DNA from: Vulcanimicrobiota bacterium
GTDB taxonomy: Bacteria; Vulcanimicrobiota; Xenobia; Xenobiales; JADMJV01
Direction of reading: 5' to 3'
Length of the DNA: 64,000 nt
Assembly (NCBI GenBank): GCA_050250895.1
Contig: JBFWNU010000001.1
Location: forward strand, 1,032,008-1,096,007
Shown here: positions 42,327 to 47,897 of the stretch, in pieces
How positions within the stretch are numbered: the first letter of the stretch is position 1
Layout: every line of letters starts with the position of its first letter
The notes under the pieces: generated by a model
What the model was told of the DNA's origin: nothing
What the model saw: only the letters and a program-made list of their open reading frames with translations
Database searches by the model: none
Position numbers and translations under genes: made by a program

Positions 42327-42414
42327 CCCGCCGGGGGGCTTCCCCAGCCAGACAGGAAGGCCGGTCACCTCGTGGAAAGCGACTCCGAGATAGAACTTTT
42401 TTCAAGGAGTGACC

Positions 42415-43023
42415 ATGGCCCACGAAATCAATCTCAAGGAAGCGGTCAAGCTCTCGGGCAAATCCGAGAAGACCTTGCGCCGTAAAATCGAGGCGGGCCT
42501 GTTACAGGGCCGCCGCGAGGATCTCGAATACGGTGGCTTCATGTGGCTCATCGATCTGACTTCGCTGGAGGAGCTGTACCCCGGGTCAGCACCCAGGGCG
42601 ATGCTAGAAATCGAGAGCCCGGACGAGCCCCCGCCGACCAGGCTGGAGCCCACCCCCAGCAGCGCCGTCACCCCGGCGCAGGCCGAAGAAGCCCCGCCTG
42701 TCCCGCCGTCCAACCAGCAATTCTTCGACTATCTGCTCGAAGAGAACCGCAACCTCAAAGAAGAAGTTCGCCAACGCGACGCCCGCATCACCTCGATGCA
42801 GGAGGCGCAGGCGCGTCTCGAGCGTTCGTTGGGCGAACAACAAGGGACGGCTGCCACCCAGAGCCGGGTGCTGGAGTGGTTTCAGCAACAAGAGCGACCG
42901 GCTCTGCCCCCCGGGCCCCAGGACGTGCCGTCTCAAGAACCCTCGGGCGCGGTGTCGGCGGGTACCGGCCTGCTGGTTCTGATCGCCCTGACCGTCGGCG
43001 GATTGCTTTCTTACCTCTTCTGA
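42415..43023 (+). CDS. HTH - coiled coil - C-terminal TM protein
   Basis: LKEAVKLSGKSEKTLRRKIEAG HTH, heptad region, hydrophobic tail; RBS AAGGAG. Confidence 0.8.
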   Translation: MAHEINLKEAVKLSGKSEKTLRRKIEAGLLQGRREDLEYGGFMWLIDLTSLEELYPGSAPRAMLEIESPDEPPPTRLEPTPSSAVTPAQAEEAPPVPPSNQQFFDYLLEENRNLKEEVRQRDARITSMQEAQARLERSLGEQQGTAATQSRVLEWFQQQERPALPPGPQDVPSQEPSGAVSAGTGLLVLIALTVGGLLSYLF

Positions 43024-43819: not shown

Positions 43820-44656
43820 ATGTCAGGACCTCTGCTAGGCGCCCACGTGTCCACCGCCGGCGGCCACCACAAGTGCTTCGAGCGAGCCGCCGAGCTGGGC
43901 TGCGAAGCCCTGCAAATCTTCACGCGAGCGCCCGGTCGCTGGCAGGGTCCGGCCCTGACGGCCGGGGGCATCCAGCAATTTCACGAGCAACGCGCTCACT
44001 ACGGATCTCTGCCCGTCATCGCCCACGACATCTACCTTTCGAACCTGGCGGCGGCCGATGAGGTGATCCGCCAACGCTCGATCCAGTCGATGCTCACCGA
44101 GTTGGACCGTTGCCAGGCCCTTGGAATCGACGGCCTGGTCTGCCATATGGGCTCGCACAGTAACGAAGAGGAAGGTCTCAACCGTTACAGCCAGGCCATC
44201 TCCGAGATTCTGAGCAAAACGGAAGGCTGCCCCATCCTATTAGAAACCACGGCCGGACAAGGAACTTGCCTGGGGCATCGTCTCGAGCATCTGGCCCACG
44301 TCATCCAAGCCAATCAGGGACACCCGCGCCTGGGTGTCTGCCTCGACACCTGCCATGTCTTCGCAGCCGGCTACGACTTACGCGAGCCGGCTGCCTATGA
44401 GGCCTTCTGGTCAGAATTCGAAACCGTGGTCGGGCTCGACCGCCTGAAAGCCCTACACCTGAACGACTCCAAGAAGCCGTTGGCCAGCCGAGTCGACCGC
44501 CACGCCCACATCGGCCAGGGCGAAATTGGGGCCAACGCCTTTCGTCTGCTGGTCAATGACTCCCGCCTGAAAGGGCTGCCCATGCTGCTGGAAACGGCCG
44601 AAGCGGACGGCATGCATCGGGTCAACCTCGACCTGCTGAAAAGCTACAGAACCTAA
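43820..44656 (+). CDS. nfo: Endonuclease IV
   Basis: GAHVS, LLETTAGQG, CLDTCHVFAAGYD, HLNDSK..DRH. Confidence 0.96.
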   Translation: MSGPLLGAHVSTAGGHHKCFERAAELGCEALQIFTRAPGRWQGPALTAGGIQQFHEQRAHYGSLPVIAHDIYLSNLAAADEVIRQRSIQSMLTELDRCQALGIDGLVCHMGSHSNEEEGLNRYSQAISEILSKTEGCPILLETTAGQGTCLGHRLEHLAHVIQANQGHPRLGVCLDTCHVFAAGYDLREPAAYEAFWSEFETVVGLDRLKALHLNDSKKPLASRVDRHAHIGQGEIGANAFRLLVNDSRLKGLPMLLETAEADGMHRVNLDLLKSYRT

Positions 44657-45165
44657 CCCTTTTTGCGTCGTTTGCGCGATTTGGGGGCCCGTCCCTCGAG
44701 CACCTCTCGCAGCAGATCCAACAGTGAGCGGACGGCTCGCGTCGAATCCCCCGGCAAAAGACGCTCGAGGGCGTCAGCCGCCAGGGGTGTCACCTGGTCG
44801 CGAATCTCGGCCAACCGCTCGGCCGCGAAATCCGAGCGCGACTTCCAGCGGTGGTCGCGCGTATCCCAAAACGCATCCTCGGGGTCGTAGTAGAAGGGGG
44901 GCTGCAACTGGCCGAGCTTCTCCTTGAGAGAGGGCACGGTGAATCCCTGATCCACGATCATGGCCTTGATGAACCGCAGTTCTACCAGATCGTAGGTGGT
45001 GTAGCGCCGGCTGCGCCCATCCATCGGCAGTTCGGGATTGAGCAAGCCCTGACTTTCCCAGTATTGAATCATTCGAGTGGTGATCCCCAGGGCCCGGGCC
45101 GCGTCCGACTGGGAAAGATAGAGGAGGGCTCCCTCGAAAAGATCAAGTTGACGATCCTGTGGCAT
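44653..45165 (-). CDS. MerR-family HTH regulator with N-terminal QLDLF motif
   Basis: AARALGITTRMIQYWESQGLL..RRYTTYDL; basic C-terminal tail; start 45165 or 45177. Confidence 0.88.
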   Translation of the reverse strand: MPQDRQLDLFEGALLYLSQSDAARALGITTRMIQYWESQGLLNPELPMDGRSRRYTTYDLVELRFIKAMIVDQGFTVPSLKEKLGQLQPPFYYDPEDAFWDTRDHRWKSRSDFAAERLAEIRDQVTPLAADALERLLPGDSTRAVRSLLDLLREVLEGRAPKSRKRRKKG

Positions 45166-45227
45166 GCGACGAAGCATCCCGGATCAGTTCGCCCATCACT
45201 CCGAAATTCTTCCAAATGGTCCCTTAG

Positions 45228-45258
45228 TTATCCCGTTATCCACAAAATTTGTGGATAA
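45228..45258. promoter_or_regulatory. Inverted pair of perfect DnaA boxes plus one degenerate box
   Basis: TTATCCACA 45236-45244, TGTGGATAA 45250-45258, TTATCCCGT 45228-45236. Confidence 0.85.
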
Positions 45259-45294
45259 GTTGCAAAACTTGTTTAAAATCGAACAGTAGTTGGC

Positions 45295-45323
45295 TTGACA
45301 GTTCTTCAAGGGGGAACTAGAAT
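45295..45323 (+). promoter_or_regulatory. Near-consensus sigma70 promoter
   Basis: TTGACA-N17-TAGAAT. Confidence 0.85.
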
Positions 45324-45329
45324 GAGGCT

Positions 45330-45470
45330 ATCGATGGAGTGAGTTCGACAAGACCAACTTCCCTACGCGACGGGAGTCCTCTGAATTAACTGGTCAAGTT
45401 CCTCAACCTGGTCGAACTACTGGTTCCTCCACGTGATTCGCTCCGCCCTCGAAAGGGGGCGTTTTTTTTT
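45330..45470 (+). ncRNA. Unassigned structured non-coding RNA (~140 nt)
   Basis: Lies between the promoter and a CGCCCTC-GAAA-GGGGGCG-T9 terminator; nested complementary segments; no credible ORF. Confidence 0.7.
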
Positions 45471-45494
45471 GCCCAAATGACGCTGAGCGTCCGA

Positions 45495-47897
45495 CTATTG
45501 GCGCGAGCCTTTTTGGCGACGCAACAAAAGGGGAGCCGGGATGCGAGATACGCGCGGCGGAGGAGCCTCGGGGAAGTCGCTATCGGGAGGCACCGACGAC
45601 GGCGGCGGCTCGGCCGGCCGGCTCGGAGCACGGCGGGGCAGACTGCCAGGGCTGGCGGGGCTGGGGGGAGCGGCACTGGGAGTGAACGGTTCGAACTCGC
45701 TCTGACGCGAGAGGGAAGCCGGCGTAAACTCCTTGGCTTGACCGGCCATGTAGGCGGCCGGAGGTGGAGCCGCCGGCTCTGGCTCGACCTCGTTCTTGGC
45801 CAGCGGCCGCGGCTTGAACGTCGGTCCGGGCTTCGGGGGCGGAGCACCAAACACCCGACCCGAGGTGGGACGATCGGGAAACGGACCCGGCCGAGCCGCA
45901 GGGGGTTGCGAAGGAGCCTGACCAAAAGCGGAGGCTGCGGGGGTGGCCGGCGCGGCCGGAGAACTGGGAGCCACTGGCTCGAGAGACGTCGCGCGCCGCG
46001 GGAAAGCCCCTTCGGCAGTCTCGGCCGAAACCGTCGGGAAGACGCTGGGAGGGGGGGTCAGCGGAGCCACCGGCGCGCGGACGGGCGGTGCTGGCGGCGC
46101 CACCGGGATGGCCCGATCCGGCCGAATGCGGCTCGAAAACCGCAAGCAGCCGGCCCGATCGTGATGAAGCTCGAAGGCCACGTCGCCCTCACCCTGGACC
46201 AGCCATTCCAGGTGCAGTCGTTGCTGCTCGTCGACACCCTCGAACCAGACCGCATCCTGAGACCGGACCAGATGAGCCGTGCTCGAGCCGGCCAACTGAC
46301 CGACTCGCACCACCGCTTGACCCATCAACAAAGAGACATCATCAGCCGGGGCGACCCGAACCTCGAGCGGGGCCACACTGCCGTCCTGAAGCGCCCGGCG
46401 CGTTACCCAGGTCGAAAGAAACCCCTGATTCTCGAGTTCGACACGAATGCGGCGCAAAGGTTGACGGTCGGCTCCGCCCTCAGCCCCCCCGCCGGCGTTG
46501 CGAGCCCCAAAATTGGGAGATTCGTTGACGCGGACGGCCCGCCCGCCCTCGGTATAGCCCAGCACGGCATCGTCGACTCTATGAACGGCCAGTCGGGGAC
46601 AGGTCGCTGCCAGCGCCATCACCAGCTTGGCGTATTTGTCCATCTCGGCCTTGAGCAAAGGGCCCGGAGGTGGGTTCAACCAGGTATTGAGAACATCCCA
46701 ACCGCCGATTTCCACTGGCCCCAATTGAGGGTGTTCGAAAGGACGCCAGGCGGTGAAGCCGCGCCCTTCGCACTCGCGATCCAGCCAGCGCAACACGGTG
46801 ACATTTTCGATCTCGGAGCGTGAGCCGAGCAAGCGGCTGGGCTCACTGACGTCAAGGCCGGCCGCCCGGGGCAGGCACCAGAGTTGACAGCGAAACGCTA
46901 GCACTCCAGTGCTTTCGTAGATCCAATCCTGGAAACTGCCGTTGCGTCGCAACTCGGTGGCCCCTTCCGAAGCCGCCTGCTCGAAGCTATAGCCACTGAC
47001 TTCGGCCATTCTCGAGCCGAGCATCTCGTAGAGCTCGGCATCCTCCGCGGGCATGCTGCGAGCACCGGCCTGGGGCTGCAAAATCATGCCCCCGAACGTG
47101 TGGCAACTCAGGGCACAAAACAGATTGGGGTGGGTCCGGAAAAAGTCGGCGATGGCACGGGTCTCGGACTCGGAGAGAGGGAACGGTCCTCCACCTCGGT
47201 TCTCGACGTCGTGCTTCCACTGGAAGGGGAAGTTCTCGTCAAAATCGAGCCGAAAGCGGTCGGCAGCCAGCTGCACAGGGCCGCTCGCCCCCCCCTCGAT
47301 GTAGCCCTCGCGATACAGACGATAAAACGGGCCCTCCCGGTCGTCGGGAGCCCGGCGCACCAGCAGACGGGGGTCACGCTTGGACACCTTCCACTCGCCC
47401 AGTGGGTCCTGGATCCGCATCTGCCGGATCCAGCCGTCGCCATCCACGTCGGCCGGCACCAGCCCGCGTGGATTCTCTTCAAACGGATAGGGGCGAGTGG
47501 CCGAGCGAATCAACTCACCCCGGGTCAGGCAGCGTTCGGCCGCGTCGGGCGAGAGCCGAGGGCAGATGTAGAACGTGCAGTTATCGAGTAAATCGGTGAC
47601 GAACTCGTCGCGCCCATGGGCCGAGGCCAGCACTCTGAGCACTTCCAGGCACGCCATCGAACTGGCGAGCTCGGGGGCGTGGAGATTGCCATCCAGCCAG
47701 ATGGCCGGCTTCTCGAGACCCTCTCGAGTGCCCCGATTGGTGACCTCGGCCAGCAACAGGGGGCGACCCTCATAGGAAGAGCCGATCGTAAACAGACGAA
47801 CTAGATGAGGAACCGCCTGCTCGACAGCCCTCAGATACTCGGCCAGACCCTGGTAAGAGAGATACCGGTCGCTATCGAGGGGGGGTACGACAGGCAA
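45495..47897 (-). CDS. M14 zinc carboxypeptidase with Pro-rich C-terminal tail
   Basis: IGSSYEGR, DGNLHAPE, ENFP, GPFPLSESETRA, SCHT. Confidence 0.88.
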   Translation of the reverse strand: MPVVPPLDSDRYLSYQGLAEYLRAVEQAVPHLVRLFTIGSSYEGRPLLLAEVTNRGTREGLEKPAIWLDGNLHAPELASSMACLEVLRVLASAHGRDEFVTDLLDNCTFYICPRLSPDAAERCLTRGELIRSATRPYPFEENPRGLVPADVDGDGWIRQMRIQDPLGEWKVSKRDPRLLVRRAPDDREGPFYRLYREGYIEGGASGPVQLAADRFRLDFDENFPFQWKHDVENRGGGPFPLSESETRAIADFFRTHPNLFCALSCHTFGGMILQPQAGARSMPAEDAELYEMLGSRMAEVSGYSFEQAASEGATELRRNGSFQDWIYESTGVLAFRCQLWCLPRAAGLDVSEPSRLLGSRSEIENVTVLRWLDRECEGRGFTAWRPFEHPQLGPVEIGGWDVLNTWLNPPPGPLLKAEMDKYAKLVMALAATCPRLAVHRVDDAVLGYTEGGRAVRVNESPNFGARNAGGGAEGGADRQPLRRIRVELENQGFLSTWVTRRALQDGSVAPLEVRVAPADDVSLLMGQAVVRVGQLAGSSTAHLVRSQDAVWFEGVDEQQRLHLEWLVQGEGDVAFELHHDRAGCLRFSSRIRPDRAIPVAPPAPPVRAPVAPLTPPPSVFPTVSAETAEGAFPRRATSLEPVAPSSPAAPATPAASAFGQAPSQPPAARPGPFPDRPTSGRVFGAPPPKPGPTFKPRPLAKNEVEPEPAAPPPAAYMAGQAKEFTPASLSRQSEFEPFTPSAAPPSPASPGSLPRRAPSRPAEPPPSSVPPDSDFPEAPPPRVSRIPAPLLLRRQKGSRQ

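Follow-up and report, generated by a model that had tools for sequence, protein, structure and literature searches.

A co-inherited MerR-type regulator and small RNA near the replication origin of Eremiobacterota, with a plausible tie to dnaA and dnaN

In the OxyR-OxyS and GcvA-GcvB systems a small RNA and the gene of its controlling factor are transcribed in opposite directions, away from an intergenic operator that serves both. Canonical activators of the MerR superfamily bind an operator placed inside a promoter with an over-long spacer of 19-20 bp. TnrA and GlnR, unlike canonical MerR proteins, act at promoters of optimal -35/-10 spacing and form dimers through an N-terminal helix, according to the available part of the published account (PMC4335299). 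The ways in which bacteria limit the initiator DnaA also differ between lineages, and in Bacillus subtilis they include ArrA, an antisense RNA under DnaA control, as the accessible portion of that report describes (PMC12112137). In Sinorhizobium meliloti the small RNA EcpR1 reportedly uses a conserved loop to pair with and repress dnaA, and gcrA as well (PMC4414408). Here we describe a locus within a 64,000-nt stretch of Vulcanimicrobiota DNA (the window) in which a MerR-type gene and a small RNA diverge from a palindrome of DnaA-box character. All the sequence features that an earlier note had listed between 44653 and 45470 were present where it placed them, and the parts of the locus are as follows.

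44653..45177, minus strand: gene of an atypical MerR-superfamily regulator of 174 aa, from its open reading frame and Pfam match
45136..45150, minus strand: QLDLF codons (residues 10-14), a possible beta-clamp-binding motif or part of a TnrA/GlnR-type dimerisation helix
45206..45211, minus strand: candidate -10 element (AAGAAT on this strand) of the regulator's own putative promoter
45236..45258, no strand: perfect 23-bp palindrome of two head-to-head DnaA-box 9-mers, TTATCCACAAAATTTGTGGATAA, the presumed operator
45295..45323, plus strand: sigma-70-type promoter of the RNA, TTGACA-17-TAGAAT, 11 of 12 matches
45330..45470, plus strand: small non-coding RNA of ~140 nt, its 5' end placed from the -10 element
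45374..45382, plus strand: motif A, GAGUCCUCU, with complementarity to AGAGGACUC, the ribosome-binding site of dnaA
45422..45430, plus strand: seed B, GGUUCCUCC, anti-Shine-Dalgarno-like, single-stranded, invariant across most of the order
45444..45470, plus strand: intrinsic terminator with a 7-bp GC-rich stem (45444-45461), a GAAA loop and a T9 run

The MerR-type gene is present in 37 of the 41 genomes of the order (Eremiobacterota/Vulcanimicrobiota), and the test of ortholog co-conservation which the earlier note had proposed for QLDLF, boxes and RNA came out positive inside it. Each of the 30 loci read has an N-terminal motif of the form Q-[LFIM]-[DE]-[LFM]-[FL], a palindrome with the core CACA-N5-TGTG, a near-consensus promoter in divergent orientation, and an RNA of 90-145 nt that ends at a terminator and invariably contains (G)UUCCUCC; 15 metagenome loci, those with upstream DNA available, show the same set from motif to terminator. 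Because the relatives are not independent of one another, percentages like these should not simply be multiplied. Beyond this one order the module reaches two other families of the phylum, and the regulator family is narrow: of 1.84 billion representatives searched, only 14 clusters match at E<=1e-30. Weak phylum-wide matches in a further family, f15, are SoxR-type proteins with a CIGCGC motif and a SoxR-like operator and not orthologs (4 of 11 inspected). One genome of 96% completeness (G017) keeps the RNA and a degenerate palindrome, and the regulator gene is not detectable in it. Across the loci compared the regulator-RNA pair is the sole constant part of the neighbourhood: endonuclease IV adjoins it only in genus g1, homologs of M14 peptidase are found in g1, g4 and g8 loci to the RNA side of the regulator gene (one g3 locus has a weak match), and the neighbours are variable outside g1, g4 and g8. 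The regulator gene, RNA, DnaA-box-like palindrome, near-consensus promoter and terminator are co-inherited. The earlier note had named this its best candidate for an undescribed system, and in our judgment the regulator-small RNA module is real and undescribed. Its proposed tie to replication is plausible from the sequence signals considered below.

The gene does encode a MerR-type helix-turn-helix protein as previously claimed, but it does not begin at MPQ; the conserved start lies four codons upstream, at MLRRMPQDRQLDLF, and relatives keep (M/V)LRRIPQ there. A 17-19 residue N-terminal extension is followed by a winged helix-turn-helix, and beyond it the protein has a block of conserved sequence, PYYYDP..FWD..WKSR, then long helices in its C-terminal part and a tail of basic character. 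Among the Pfam models tested (PF13411/PF00376), MerR_1 matches with E 2.9e-14 and 53.4 bits (cut-off 21.6) and MerR with 30.4 bits (cut-off 28.2), and all 13 matches to the NCBIfam named equivalogs (CueR, SoxR, HspR, ZntR, MerR, FtsR, TnrA) fall far below their cut-offs, the best being CueR (33 bits vs 147.4) and the TnrA model scoring 12.9 bits vs 140. The AF2 model (pLDDT 84.7) retrieved MerR-family chains only in structure searches; fold searches gave nothing informative for the C-terminal half, and the protein atlas search returned only generic MerR clusters of other phyla (score 0.91). Helices are modelled at residues 114-140 and 145-160 of the single chain. Upstream of the gene a GAATTCTT-like sequence is kept, by eye, at the candidate -10 position in g1 and g3, and no good -35 was found for this promoter. 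The RNA promoter lacks the over-long spacer of canonical MerR targets: its spacer is 17 bp long in this locus and ranges from 16 to 18 bp across 39 loci. The palindrome stands upstream of the -35, at a distance of 26-84 bp.

The pentapeptide QL[SD]LF is the beta-clamp-binding consensus and is carried by proteins such as Hda, polymerases and MutS. Set against this consensus, the regulator's QLDLF resembles the motif of clamp-binding proteins in being terminal and conserved among orthologs: Q10 is invariant (23 of 23 aligned orthologs), L11, L13 and F14 are conserved, and F14 is kept in at least 90%. Within the order the variants are QLDLF, QFELF, QLEFF, QLELF, QIDMF, QIDLF and QMEFL; more distant members of the regulator family have QLPLF, QLGLF or QLEFF, the two other families carry QLPLF at the motif position, and the most distant relatives (P0108-P0110) have lost it. 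A model of the complex docks regulator residues 5-14 into the peptide-binding region of the clamp, in contact with DnaN residues 173-178, 244, 249, 322, 324, 348, 350 and 364-371, which we take, by E. coli numbering, to be the canonical cleft between domains II and III. The docking score was 0.64 (runs 0.67, 0.64 and 0.64) against 0.12 for the best control, at a mark reached for 116 of 157 solved complexes but for only 2 of 215 mismatched pairs, with at least 78% of contacts agreeing between runs and a partner pLDDT of at least 49, although this pass may show only likeness because many clamp-peptide complexes have already been solved.

The same segment may also be viewed as part of a dimerisation helix. 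AF2 places a helix at residues 7-13, with a mean pLDDT of 85 for residues 1-10 and 73 for residues 11-20, and this N-terminal helix superposes on GlnR (VIA Z 8.1, model residues 11-92) and on TnrA (VIA Z 7.6, model residues 8-92), the structures compared being 7tea and 4r22. The regulator has the extension of ~11-20 extra residues with a hydrophobic helix that marks the TnrA/GlnR type, and the TnrA/GlnR operator TGTNAN7TNACA is absent, the core here being CACA-N5-TGTG. Literature searches found no MerR-type protein with a clamp-binding motif (with the query word 'merr' probably also matching an author surname) and no relevant report of a transcription factor binding the sliding clamp. To our knowledge no transcription factor of this fold binds the clamp.

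Between gene and promoter lie the two perfect DnaA boxes described by the earlier note, both TTATCCACA, and they are the only matches with at most one mismatch in the window. The whole 9.5 Mb genome has 15 perfect boxes, of which 8 fall at 0.95-1.34 Mb of contig C1, around the origin. DnaA boxes have the relaxed form TT[AT]TNCACA. In 30 relatives, the 3408 bp of DNA between regulator and RNA hold 42 boxes with at most one mismatch, a density of 12.3 per kb against 0.07 per kb in the rest of the same loci. The enrichment is 176-fold, with at least one box in 22 and at least two in 19 of the 30 intergenic regions. The CACA-N5-TGTG core is kept at 8 of 8 bases in 27 loci and at 7 of 8 in the other 3. 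The distance from its centre to the RNA -35 is 26 bp at 13 loci and 28 bp at 5 others; at 9 more it is 47-49 bp, at one 69 bp, and in g5 62 or 84 bp. The palindrome keeps its helix-face position relative to the RNA promoter (26-28, 47-49 or 69 bp). The arms co-vary symmetrically, as in TTGATTGACACAA-CTT-TTGTGTCAATCAA of locus L115, and extend to 17 nt in g9. Five of the six g2 loci, both g5 loci and L015 lack any box with at most one mismatch, yet core and spacing are still kept; a dimer operator fits better than DnaA, because the arms co-vary symmetrically and the boxes are lost in g2, g5 and L015. Extra boxes in direct orientation nevertheless stand beside the palindrome in g3, g4, g8 and G049, and in g3, g8, g6 and G049 boxes abut one another in arrays of 3-6. 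A two-plus-two head-to-head arrangement of boxes is also found upstream of dnaA in this genome, where the second of two genome copies of CCACA-N5-TGTGG lies, and the spacing of the inverted boxes there is not kept across relatives (4, 5, 15 or 16 bp). A wider regulon was rejected, CACAANNNTTGTG occurring three times in the genome against a roughly estimated 4-5 expected by composition, with the other two sites uninformative; so was a CRP-type site, the orientation being the reverse of TGTGA-N6-TCACA. A literature search on DnaA boxes with the MerR family found nothing relevant.

The divergent TTGACA-N17-TAGAAT promoter was found as described, and promoter-like sites number 2 against 0.3 expected. 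A search pattern of TTGACN and TAnnnT spaced by 16-18 nt, with TTCCTCC and a T-run after them, matched in 39 of 41 loci (L009-L049); the two unmatched are L036, where the promoter is seen by eye, and L049. The transcript has, as proposed, no credible open reading frame (none of at least 30 aa starts on the plus strand between 45331 and 45470) and ends in the stem and T9 run, a hairpin plus T-run being present in every relative read. The comparison with Rfam which the earlier note had suggested returned no family: a search of 44900-45700 against release 15 gave two sub-threshold matches only, Esr41 and a betaproteobacterial sRNA, both on the terminator, and the better, Esr41, reached 18.3 bits against a gathering score of 102 (E 0.85). 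The RNA is single-copy in the genome (nhmmer, g1+g3 alignment), and a supposed second copy inside dnaN was not significant (E 8.3). Its structure shows covariation. In the g3 RNA, 95.2% of the cells of 19 pairs are paired against 27-47% with the partner slid, and 7 of the 19 pairs have changed on both sides, a figure reached by 0 of 500 shuffles; in the g2 RNA 9 of 31 pairs are compensatory. The RNA folds into covariation-supported helices, with the anti-Shine-Dalgarno seed B single-stranded just before the terminator and motif A in a loop of the g1 and g3 RNAs. With its own promoter and terminator, conserved structure and conserved single-stranded seed, it has the marks of a base-pairing trans-acting small RNA.

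The analysis of GC skew that had been proposed places the locus near the origin, 68 kb from dnaA/oriC, with dnaA at the skew minimum. In 7 relatives with both genes on one contig, regulator and dnaA are 30-108 kb apart. YabA is not seen in this genome, and no Hda-like paralog was found because the genome has only one DnaA-domain gene.

The predicted complementarity of the RNA to the ribosome-binding sites of dnaA and dnaN is new here. It extends over 8-11 nt to dnaA and/or dnaN in 7 of 8 genera, against 5-8 nt only for the regulator's own leader. Motif A is conserved in the g1 and g3 RNAs, and the pairing it can form with the cognate dnaA leader is 9-11 nt long in G000, G001, G005, G007 and G013, with a compensatory swap of U:A to A:U between G000 and G001; GAGGACTC is the sole invariant block of these dnaA leaders. 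Seed B, which has the variant AGUUCCUCC in g5, offers 8-11 nt of possible pairing to the dnaA leader (g2, g6, g8, g9) and to the dnaN leader (g1, g2, g4), and g2 dnaA leaders keep a GACUC too close for a Shine-Dalgarno site. The longest perfect match to the cognate dnaA leader averages 8.32 nt (19 genomes) against 7.22 for RNAs of other genera, that to the cognate dnaN leader 7.65 (23 genomes) against 5.91, and that to the regulator's own leader, the control, 5.73 (30 genomes) against 5.94. Only the cognate RNA reaches 9-11 nt on g4 dnaN and 8-9 nt on g2 dnaN. Elsewhere the matches are shorter, at 6-7 nt on dnaA and 6 nt on dnaN in g5, 5-7 nt on dnaA in g4, and 5-7 nt on dnaN in g3, g8 and g9. 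The RNAs of the distant families add no support: that of G069 matches its two candidate dnaA starts over 8 and 7 nt and dnaN over 7 and 6 nt, and that of G049 has 6 nt on dnaA and lacks the CCUCC motif.

An anti-Shine-Dalgarno seed pairs with any strong Shine-Dalgarno site. Among 4057 start regions of this genome with such a site, 2.37% reach at least 9 nt, 0.74% reach 10 nt and 0.20% reach 11 nt, and other start regions pair as well as dnaA or better. The genome has 40 copies of AGAGGACTC, 6 of which precede a possible start of an open reading frame of at least 100 aa, dnaA among them, and ~1% of its genes carry GGAGGAAC at the start. The argument for the targets rests on conservation and co-variation, because the complementarity of the whole G000 RNA is by itself unremarkable (2.6% of 24,704 crude start windows reach at least 9 nt).

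We favor, at a probability of about 50%, the reading that this is a lineage-specific MerR-type regulator with a divergent, structured small RNA which pairs in trans with dnaA and dnaN and thereby feeds back on replication. A protein bound to the palindrome, most likely a dimer of the regulator and possibly also, or in competition, DnaA, would set RNA synthesis from an activator-like position. The RNA would then act in trans by pairing with ribosome-binding sites, its best-supported candidate targets being dnaA and dnaN, which encode initiator and sliding clamp and lie at the origin, at a distance of 68 kb, and the module may in this manner feed back on replication initiation and clamp supply. 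More speculatively, the QLDLF segment would bind the beta clamp, which would then be the regulator's signal, as the clamp is the product of the target operon. A closed homeostatic loop of this kind is rather unlikely in our estimation: free DnaN would bind the QLDLF helix, the counterpart of the TnrA/GlnR dimerisation helix, and would switch binding to a DnaA-box-like operator perhaps shared or contested with DnaA; the resulting level of small RNA would mask the dnaA and dnaN ribosome-binding sites, so that the supply of initiator and clamp would be sensed through the clamp itself. The earlier note had proposed a DnaA-controlled, replication-coupled pair. The coupling gains from co-conservation, the position near the origin, the dnaA/dnaN complementarity and the modelled docking, and loses from the missing boxes of g2 and the TnrA/GlnR-like helix; the term 'DnaA-controlled' stays provisional because each signal has an ordinary alternative and binding is predicted.

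That ordinary alternative is the most serious one, doubtful but quite possible: a common regulator-small RNA pair, with a dimer operator of its own that happens to resemble TTATCCACA, a QLDLF that forms the hydrophobic face of a TnrA/GlnR-like dimerisation helix, and a general anti-Shine-Dalgarno RNA whose dnaA and dnaN matches would be by-products of strong Shine-Dalgarno sites. The symmetric co-variation of the arms points this way, as does the loss of DnaA-box character in g2 and g5 with retention of CACA-N5-TGTG, and the variable spacing of the inverted boxes upstream of dnaA agrees with it. So do the confidently modelled N-terminal helix that superposes on GlnR and TnrA, the 16-18 bp spacers, which recall the optimal promoter spacing of TnrA/GlnR in the part of that report available (PMC4335299), the pairing of the seed with many other start regions, and the absence of dnaA/dnaN pairing in G049 and its weakness in G069. 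However, a pair of this kind leaves several observations unexplained, namely the extra direct-orientation boxes of g3, g4, g8 and G049, the genus-specific dnaN matches of g2 and g4 with the compensatory change between G000 and G001, the GACUC of the g2 dnaA leaders, the conserved origin-proximal position, and a docking of residues 5-14 well above controls; the missing TGTNAN7TNACA operator and the low score of the TnrA model also count against it.

It is improbable that the palindrome is primarily a regulatory or titration site for DnaA near the origin, under a view in which DnaA alone would control both promoters with the MerR-type protein as a regulated passenger. DnaA-box clusters near oriC occur in other bacteria, and the two perfect boxes, the 176-fold enrichment, the abutting arrays of g3, g8, g6 and G049, the matching arrangement upstream of dnaA, the concentration of 8 of the 15 perfect genome boxes around the origin and the retention of the RNA without a regulator gene in G017 would all be in keeping with such a site. 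DnaA binds 9-mers as a monomer, however, so the fixed N5 head-to-head spacing and the symmetric co-variation go unexplained, and g2 (5 of 6 loci), g5 and L015 keep core and spacing with no box; perfect long palindromes unlike DnaA sites exist (L115), and the tight linkage in 37 of 41 genomes suggests that the regulator takes part. The accessible portion of the ArrA report does provide a precedent, a promoter repressed by DnaA (PMC12112137). It is hardly credible, finally, that the transcript is not trans-acting but is a small-protein mRNA, a cis leader of a downstream gene or a protein-sequestering RNA. The M14 peptidase homologs on the RNA side in g1, g4 and g8, and weakly in one g3 locus, count in favor of such a reading, but a strong terminator of its own closes the RNA, the gene that follows in the window runs convergently, and the neighbours vary outside those three genera; a small-protein gene is rejected because there is no conserved open reading frame, and the compensatory substitutions in the helices would scramble a reading frame.

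Eremiobacterota (WPS-2) are widespread in soils, and we know of no experimental work on gene regulation in them. A literature search on the phylum and small RNA, by titles and the openings of abstracts, found nothing on topic. If the favored reading is true, the phylum would have its first described family of conserved riboregulators, and a small RNA aimed at dnaA and dnaN would be a new solution to an old problem, the more so if a promoter with DnaA boxes drives it and its partner regulator has a clamp-binding-like motif. Should the clamp be the signal, the regulator would be the first transcription factor to read the sliding clamp. The model is directly testable in vitro and with E. coli reporters, because all its parts are short and portable.

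The module shares features with each of the systems closest to it. Its divergent layout is that of OxyR-OxyS and GcvA-GcvB, whose regulators, unlike the one here, are LysR-type and have no link to replication genes. With clamp-binding proteins (Hda, polymerases, MutS) the regulator has in common a terminal, family-conserved Q-L-[DE]-L-F, and its segment is modelled in the domain II/III cleft by the C-terminal MPV(K/R)LR strand of the clamp, which may reflect likeness; it differs from them in being modelled as a helix in the free protein. Like TnrA and GlnR, in the available part of the source, the regulator has a winged helix-turn-helix after ~11-20 extra residues with a hydrophobic helix, and where their activity is set by binding of a partner protein, glutamine synthetase, the partner here would putatively be the beta clamp (PMC4335299). 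Their operator is TGTNAN7TNACA, against a presumed CACA-N5-TGTG core here, and their C-terminal region has no coiled coil, whereas the regulator has the PYYYDP..FWD..WKSR block and long C-terminal helices. EcpR1 is likewise trans-encoded, structured and conserved over several families, and the consulted text reports its targets as experimentally confirmed whereas those here are predicted (PMC4414408). In sequence it is unrelated to the RNA described here, for which the Rfam search of the locus gave only the sub-threshold Esr41 and betaproteobacterial matches, and it has neither a DnaA-box palindrome nor an adjacent regulator, unlike the present module. ArrA, as far as the accessible portion of its report goes, is cis-antisense to the dnaA 5' UTR, is under DnaA control and is conserved only in some Bacillus species without a dedicated regulator gene, while the RNA here is encoded 68 kb away, would pair by short seeds, is only putatively controlled by DnaA and has a MerR-type partner; the regulatory logic of ArrA is nonetheless the same as that proposed here (PMC12112137).

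The regulator and the small RNA at this locus form a module that is real, conserved and undescribed. The earlier note, made from the sequence alone, had described a MerR gene, two perfect DnaA boxes arranged as a palindrome, a divergent promoter, about 140 nt without a credible ORF and a T9 terminator, and all of these were confirmed in the window:

44653..45177, minus strand: regulator ORF, 174 aa, MerR_1 domain at residues 24-88 (E 2.9e-14)
45236-45258: perfect palindrome TTATCCACAAAATTTGTGGATAA, 60 bases upstream of the regulator ORF
45295-45323, strand opposite the regulator: RNA promoter, TTGACA-17-TAGAAT
45444-45470: RNA terminator, a 7-bp GC-rich hairpin and a T9 run

The regulator protein begins MLRRMPQDRQLDLF, and the two TTATCCACA boxes within the palindrome are the sole matches at one mismatch or fewer in a window-wide box search. 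An ORF scan found none in the ~140 nt downstream of the promoter. The Rfam check suggested for the RNA returned no model near threshold, the top score being 18.3 bits against 102 and confined to the terminator, so that the RNA has no sequence relation to a known Rfam family. The regulator adjoins an endonuclease-IV-like gene (43820-44656, plus strand; Pfam AP_endonuc_2, E 1.1e-52), with which it shares a convergent 4-bp overlap of stop regions (44653-44656); this neighbor is retained within genus g1 only. A 204-aa ORF at 42409-43023 (plus strand) drew no Pfam match at E<=0.01; its N-terminus is HTH-like (..KEAVKLSGKSEKTLRRKIEAGLL..), its middle resembles a coiled coil and its C-terminus carries a hydrophobic segment.

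The regulator is present in 37 of the 41 genomes of the order, the source genome included. All 30 loci whose upstream DNA was read combine an N-terminal Q-[LFIM]-[DE]-[LFM]-[FL] motif, a CACA-N5-TGTG palindrome, a divergent TTGACN-16/18-TAnnnT promoter and a 90-145 nt RNA with UUCCUCC (mostly as GGUUCCUCC) and a terminator, and the identical layout recurs in 15 metagenome loci with upstream DNA. The conservation of motif, palindrome and RNA together, which the earlier note had proposed to examine in relatives, is upheld within the order. A pattern search over the 41 loci L009-L049 picked up promoter, seed and T-run together in 39; the non-matches were L049 and L036, the latter having an interrupted T-run in a layout still visible by eye. 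A sample of 301 genomes from the phylum has full-length orthologs in the order and in two further families, whose representatives G069 and G049 carry, as read from sequence, QLPLF plus a divergent small terminated transcript. Weak matches in the large family f15 were rejected as orthologs, being SoxR-type proteins. Only 14 clusters among 1.84 billion representative proteins match the regulator at E<=1e-30, and relatives beyond these retain the HTH and a PY.Y..FWD..W block without the N-terminal motif. The g5 genome G017 (96% complete) has a diverged RNA with promoter, seed, terminator and a degenerate palindrome (L126, G017:C1:9525-12560), its divergent neighbor being an unrelated ORF of >365 aa; a search across this genome found no regulator gene. 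Lineage-specific features were also seen in the protein. All g4 orthologs (L018, L019, L020, L022, L023) have a 7-residue insertion (QDDAGKD or VDMKGKE) between the two HTH helices, and the C-terminal tails range from an AT-hook-like RGRPRK in g3 to P[SA]P[LI][LF] and then acidic residues in g8, g9 and g6, possibly a further short linear motif.

The RNA is single copy in the genome. Its 5' domain varies by genus around a constant design, in which, after a closing helix, (U)GGUUCCUCC is left single-stranded and a short variable stretch leads to the terminator; g1 and g3 RNAs share a second invariant motif, GAGUCCUCU(G), in a loop. Three helices, one forming a pseudoknot, were named in the g3 RNA (11 distinct sequences), with 95.2% of cells paired vs 27-47% after shifting the 3' partner by 1-3 columns; both sides have changed in 7 of 19 pairs, and the observed values were reached by none of 500 shuffles. 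RNAalifold gave 31 pairs for the g2 RNA, 9 of them compensatory.

The palindrome lies with its center 26 bp (13 loci), 28 bp (5), 47-49 bp (9) or 69 bp (1) from the RNA -35, or 62 or 84 bp in g5. As these distances step by about two helical turns while that to the regulator start codon varies (50-133 bp), the palindrome is tied to the RNA promoter, in a position that we take to be typical of upstream activators. A dimeric factor acting there would most simply be the neighboring regulator, whose binding we give a probability of about 0.6; DnaA, whose binding is compatible with that of the regulator, falls somewhat short of an even chance. DnaA is favored by the two perfect boxes in the source genome, by a density of boxes (one mismatch or fewer) of 12.3 per kb in the 30 intergenic regions vs 0.07 per kb elsewhere in the same loci, by additional direct-orientation boxes in g3, g4, g8, g6 and G049, and by a two-plus-two head-to-head array upstream of dnaA itself (TTTTCCACAATTGTCCACAGAGCCTGTGGACATTGTGGATTA), with an N5 center as in the palindrome. 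A dimeric factor better suits the N5 spacing, constant in 30/30 loci where inverted boxes upstream of relatives' dnaA are 4, 5, 15 or 16 bp apart, and the co-changing arms (e.g., G/G, A/A and C/C at the free fifth position of the box). L115 has a perfect but non-DnaA-like 13+3+13 palindrome, and g9 arms reach 17 nt. The palindrome core is also kept where boxes are absent at one mismatch or fewer, in g2 (5/6 loci), g5 (2/2) and L015.

The seed GGUUCCUCC complements a Shine-Dalgarno site plus spacer (GGAGGAACC) with which many genes of the source genome start, and so names no target alone; dnaA was tested first because of the DnaA boxes at the locus. Its leader (..AAGAGGACUCUCCUGAAUG) contains AGAGGACUC, an exact complement of RNA motif A over 9 nt, extending to 11 bp if one G-U pair is counted. 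Of 40 genome copies of AGAGGACTC, only 6 lie ahead of a potential ORF start, counting ORFs of at least 100 aa. RNA GGAGUCCUCA and leader UGAGGACUCC in genome G001 form 10 bp, in which a U:A pair of the source genome has become A:U, g3 matches span 9-11 nt, and GAGGACTC is the sole invariant block of aligned g1 and g3 dnaA leaders. In g8, g9 and g6 the leader AGGAGGAAC(C/U) pairs with the invariant seed over 8-11 nt, while the g2 leader offers AGGAACCA (8 nt with the seed) and GACUC one base before AUG. The dnaN leader, intended as a control, matched too: 9-11 nt in g4 (CCUCCUUGAUC), 8-9 nt in g2 (CCUCCAUG) and 8-9 nt in g1, those of g4 and g2 with the RNA of the cognate genus only. GGACUC is common to dnaA leaders of g1-g3, and GGAGGUACUC to dnaN leaders of g2 and one g4 genome (G018). 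A second pairing block beside the seed is possible in g2, whose RNA itself contains GGGUACUCUGG.

Mean longest match of leaders to the RNA
dnaA leader, 19 genomes: cognate 8.32 nt, other-genus 7.22 nt
dnaN leader, 23 genomes: cognate 7.65 nt, other-genus 5.91 nt
Regulator's own leader (control), 30 genomes: cognate 5.73 nt, other-genus 5.94 nt

As relatives share ancestry, we count about four independent signals at lineage level here rather than nineteen. Across 4057 SD-bearing start regions of the source genome, complementarity of at least 8, 9, 10 and 11 nt occurs in 8.6, 2.37, 0.74 and 0.20%, respectively. Several other genes equal or beat dnaA, among them phosphoserine-aminotransferase-like and peroxiredoxin-like genes (names read from N-termini) with 11 nt. 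Also against targeting are the short matches in g5 (6-7 nt on dnaA, 6 nt on dnaN), on g4 dnaA and on g3, g8 and g9 dnaN (5-7 nt each), in G069 (8 and 7 nt on two candidate dnaA starts, 7 and 6 nt on dnaN) and on G049 dnaA (6 nt). Overall, we rate it slightly less likely than not that the targets of the RNA include dnaA and/or dnaN.

The regulator pentapeptide QLDLF (residues 10-14) fits the clamp-binding consensus QL[SD]LF; it is terminal, and conserved wherever the full regulator family occurs. It is a candidate clamp-binding motif. A regulator-DnaN complex model, built with family alignments for both chains, sets residues 5-14 against DnaN 173-178, 244, 249, 322, 324, 348, 350 and 364-371, which we take, by E. 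coli numbering, to be the canonical peptide cleft. The model scored 0.64 (runs 0.67, 0.64 and 0.64; at least 78% contact agreement, partner pLDDT at least 49) vs 0.12 for the top control; 116/157 solved complexes and 2/215 mismatched pairs attain that mark. Since solved structures include many clamp-peptide complexes, this speaks for likeness to a clamp-binding peptide, not for binding. The same segment may instead be a structural helix, being predicted helical at residues 7-13 by AF2 (mean pLDDT 85 for residues 1-10, 73 for 11-20). A Foldseek-independent structural comparison placed GlnR best (Z 8.1, rmsd 3.4 over 77 residues, model residues 11-92), with TnrA at Z 7.6 (residues 8-92), both matches taking in the N-terminal helix. 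The excerpted text of PMC4335299 describes for TnrA/GlnR an extra hydrophobic N-terminal helix forming a weak dimer required for DNA binding, action at optimally spaced promoters and switching by a partner protein. Clamp binding and a structural helix can be combined, in that a partner capturing the helix would control dimerization, although this is not our base case.

The source genome (9.5 Mb, 17 contigs), which the source names of homologous proteins assign to Eremiobacterota/Vulcanimicrobiota, carries dnaA and dnaN on the same contig as the window (C1:1032008-1096007):

C1:1144563: dnaA
about C1:1146300 (ORF from 1146283): dnaN

Three relaxed DnaA boxes cluster at their junction (C1:1146144-1146310), and the cumulative GC skew of C1 has its minimum at about 1.12 Mb. 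By these markers the locus is ~68 kb (~0.7% of the genome) from the origin region, so the nearness to oriC that was to be sought by GC skew is upheld. The regulator-dnaA distance is 30-108 kb in the 7 relatives with both genes on one contig (G005, G016, G018, G020, G021, G029 and G034), the genes of other relatives being on separate contigs. Perfect TTATCCACA boxes are not enriched genome-wide (15 copies vs 23 for the reversed control word), and 8 of the 15 sit at 0.95-1.34 Mb of C1, around the origin. Outside the window, at least 7 DnaA-box-like 9-mers, those of the head-to-head array among them, lie upstream of dnaA (C1:1144280-1144460; L050/L007). Some 10 kb from dnaA, a second box cluster (..CCACAATTAATGT..TGTGGATAAAGCCGTGGATATGTGGATAA..; C1:1154690-1154760, L008 about 1465-1535) occupies a 310-bp intergenic gap beside an AT-rich stretch; this cluster may belong to oriC or mark a further promoter under DnaA control.

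Of the proposal of a regulator/ncRNA pair coupled to replication, the conserved pair is established. The proposed replication link draws on four independent kinds of sequence evidence, namely the boxes, origin nearness, dnaA/dnaN complementarity and clamp-motif docking, each with an ordinary alternative. Known clamp-linked DnaA regulators were not found in two genome searches, which returned no YabA and only one DnaA-domain gene. Literature searches turned up no work on small RNAs of the phylum, and none on MerR-type proteins that carry a clamp motif or have an operator with DnaA boxes. The module is a regulator-sRNA pair that probably belongs with the riboregulators of replication genes. In Sinorhizobium, the trans-sRNA EcpR1 represses dnaA and gcrA via a conserved loop (PMC4414408, in excerpt). 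ArrA of B. subtilis, an RNA with a DnaA-repressed promoter that lowers dnaA-dnaN expression, is the closest in regulatory logic, but is a cis-antisense RNA confined to some Bacillus species (PMC12112137, in excerpt). As these excerpts present them, ArrA and EcpR1 each act without a dedicated regulator gene, a promoter-phased DnaA-box palindrome or a clamp-motif protein.
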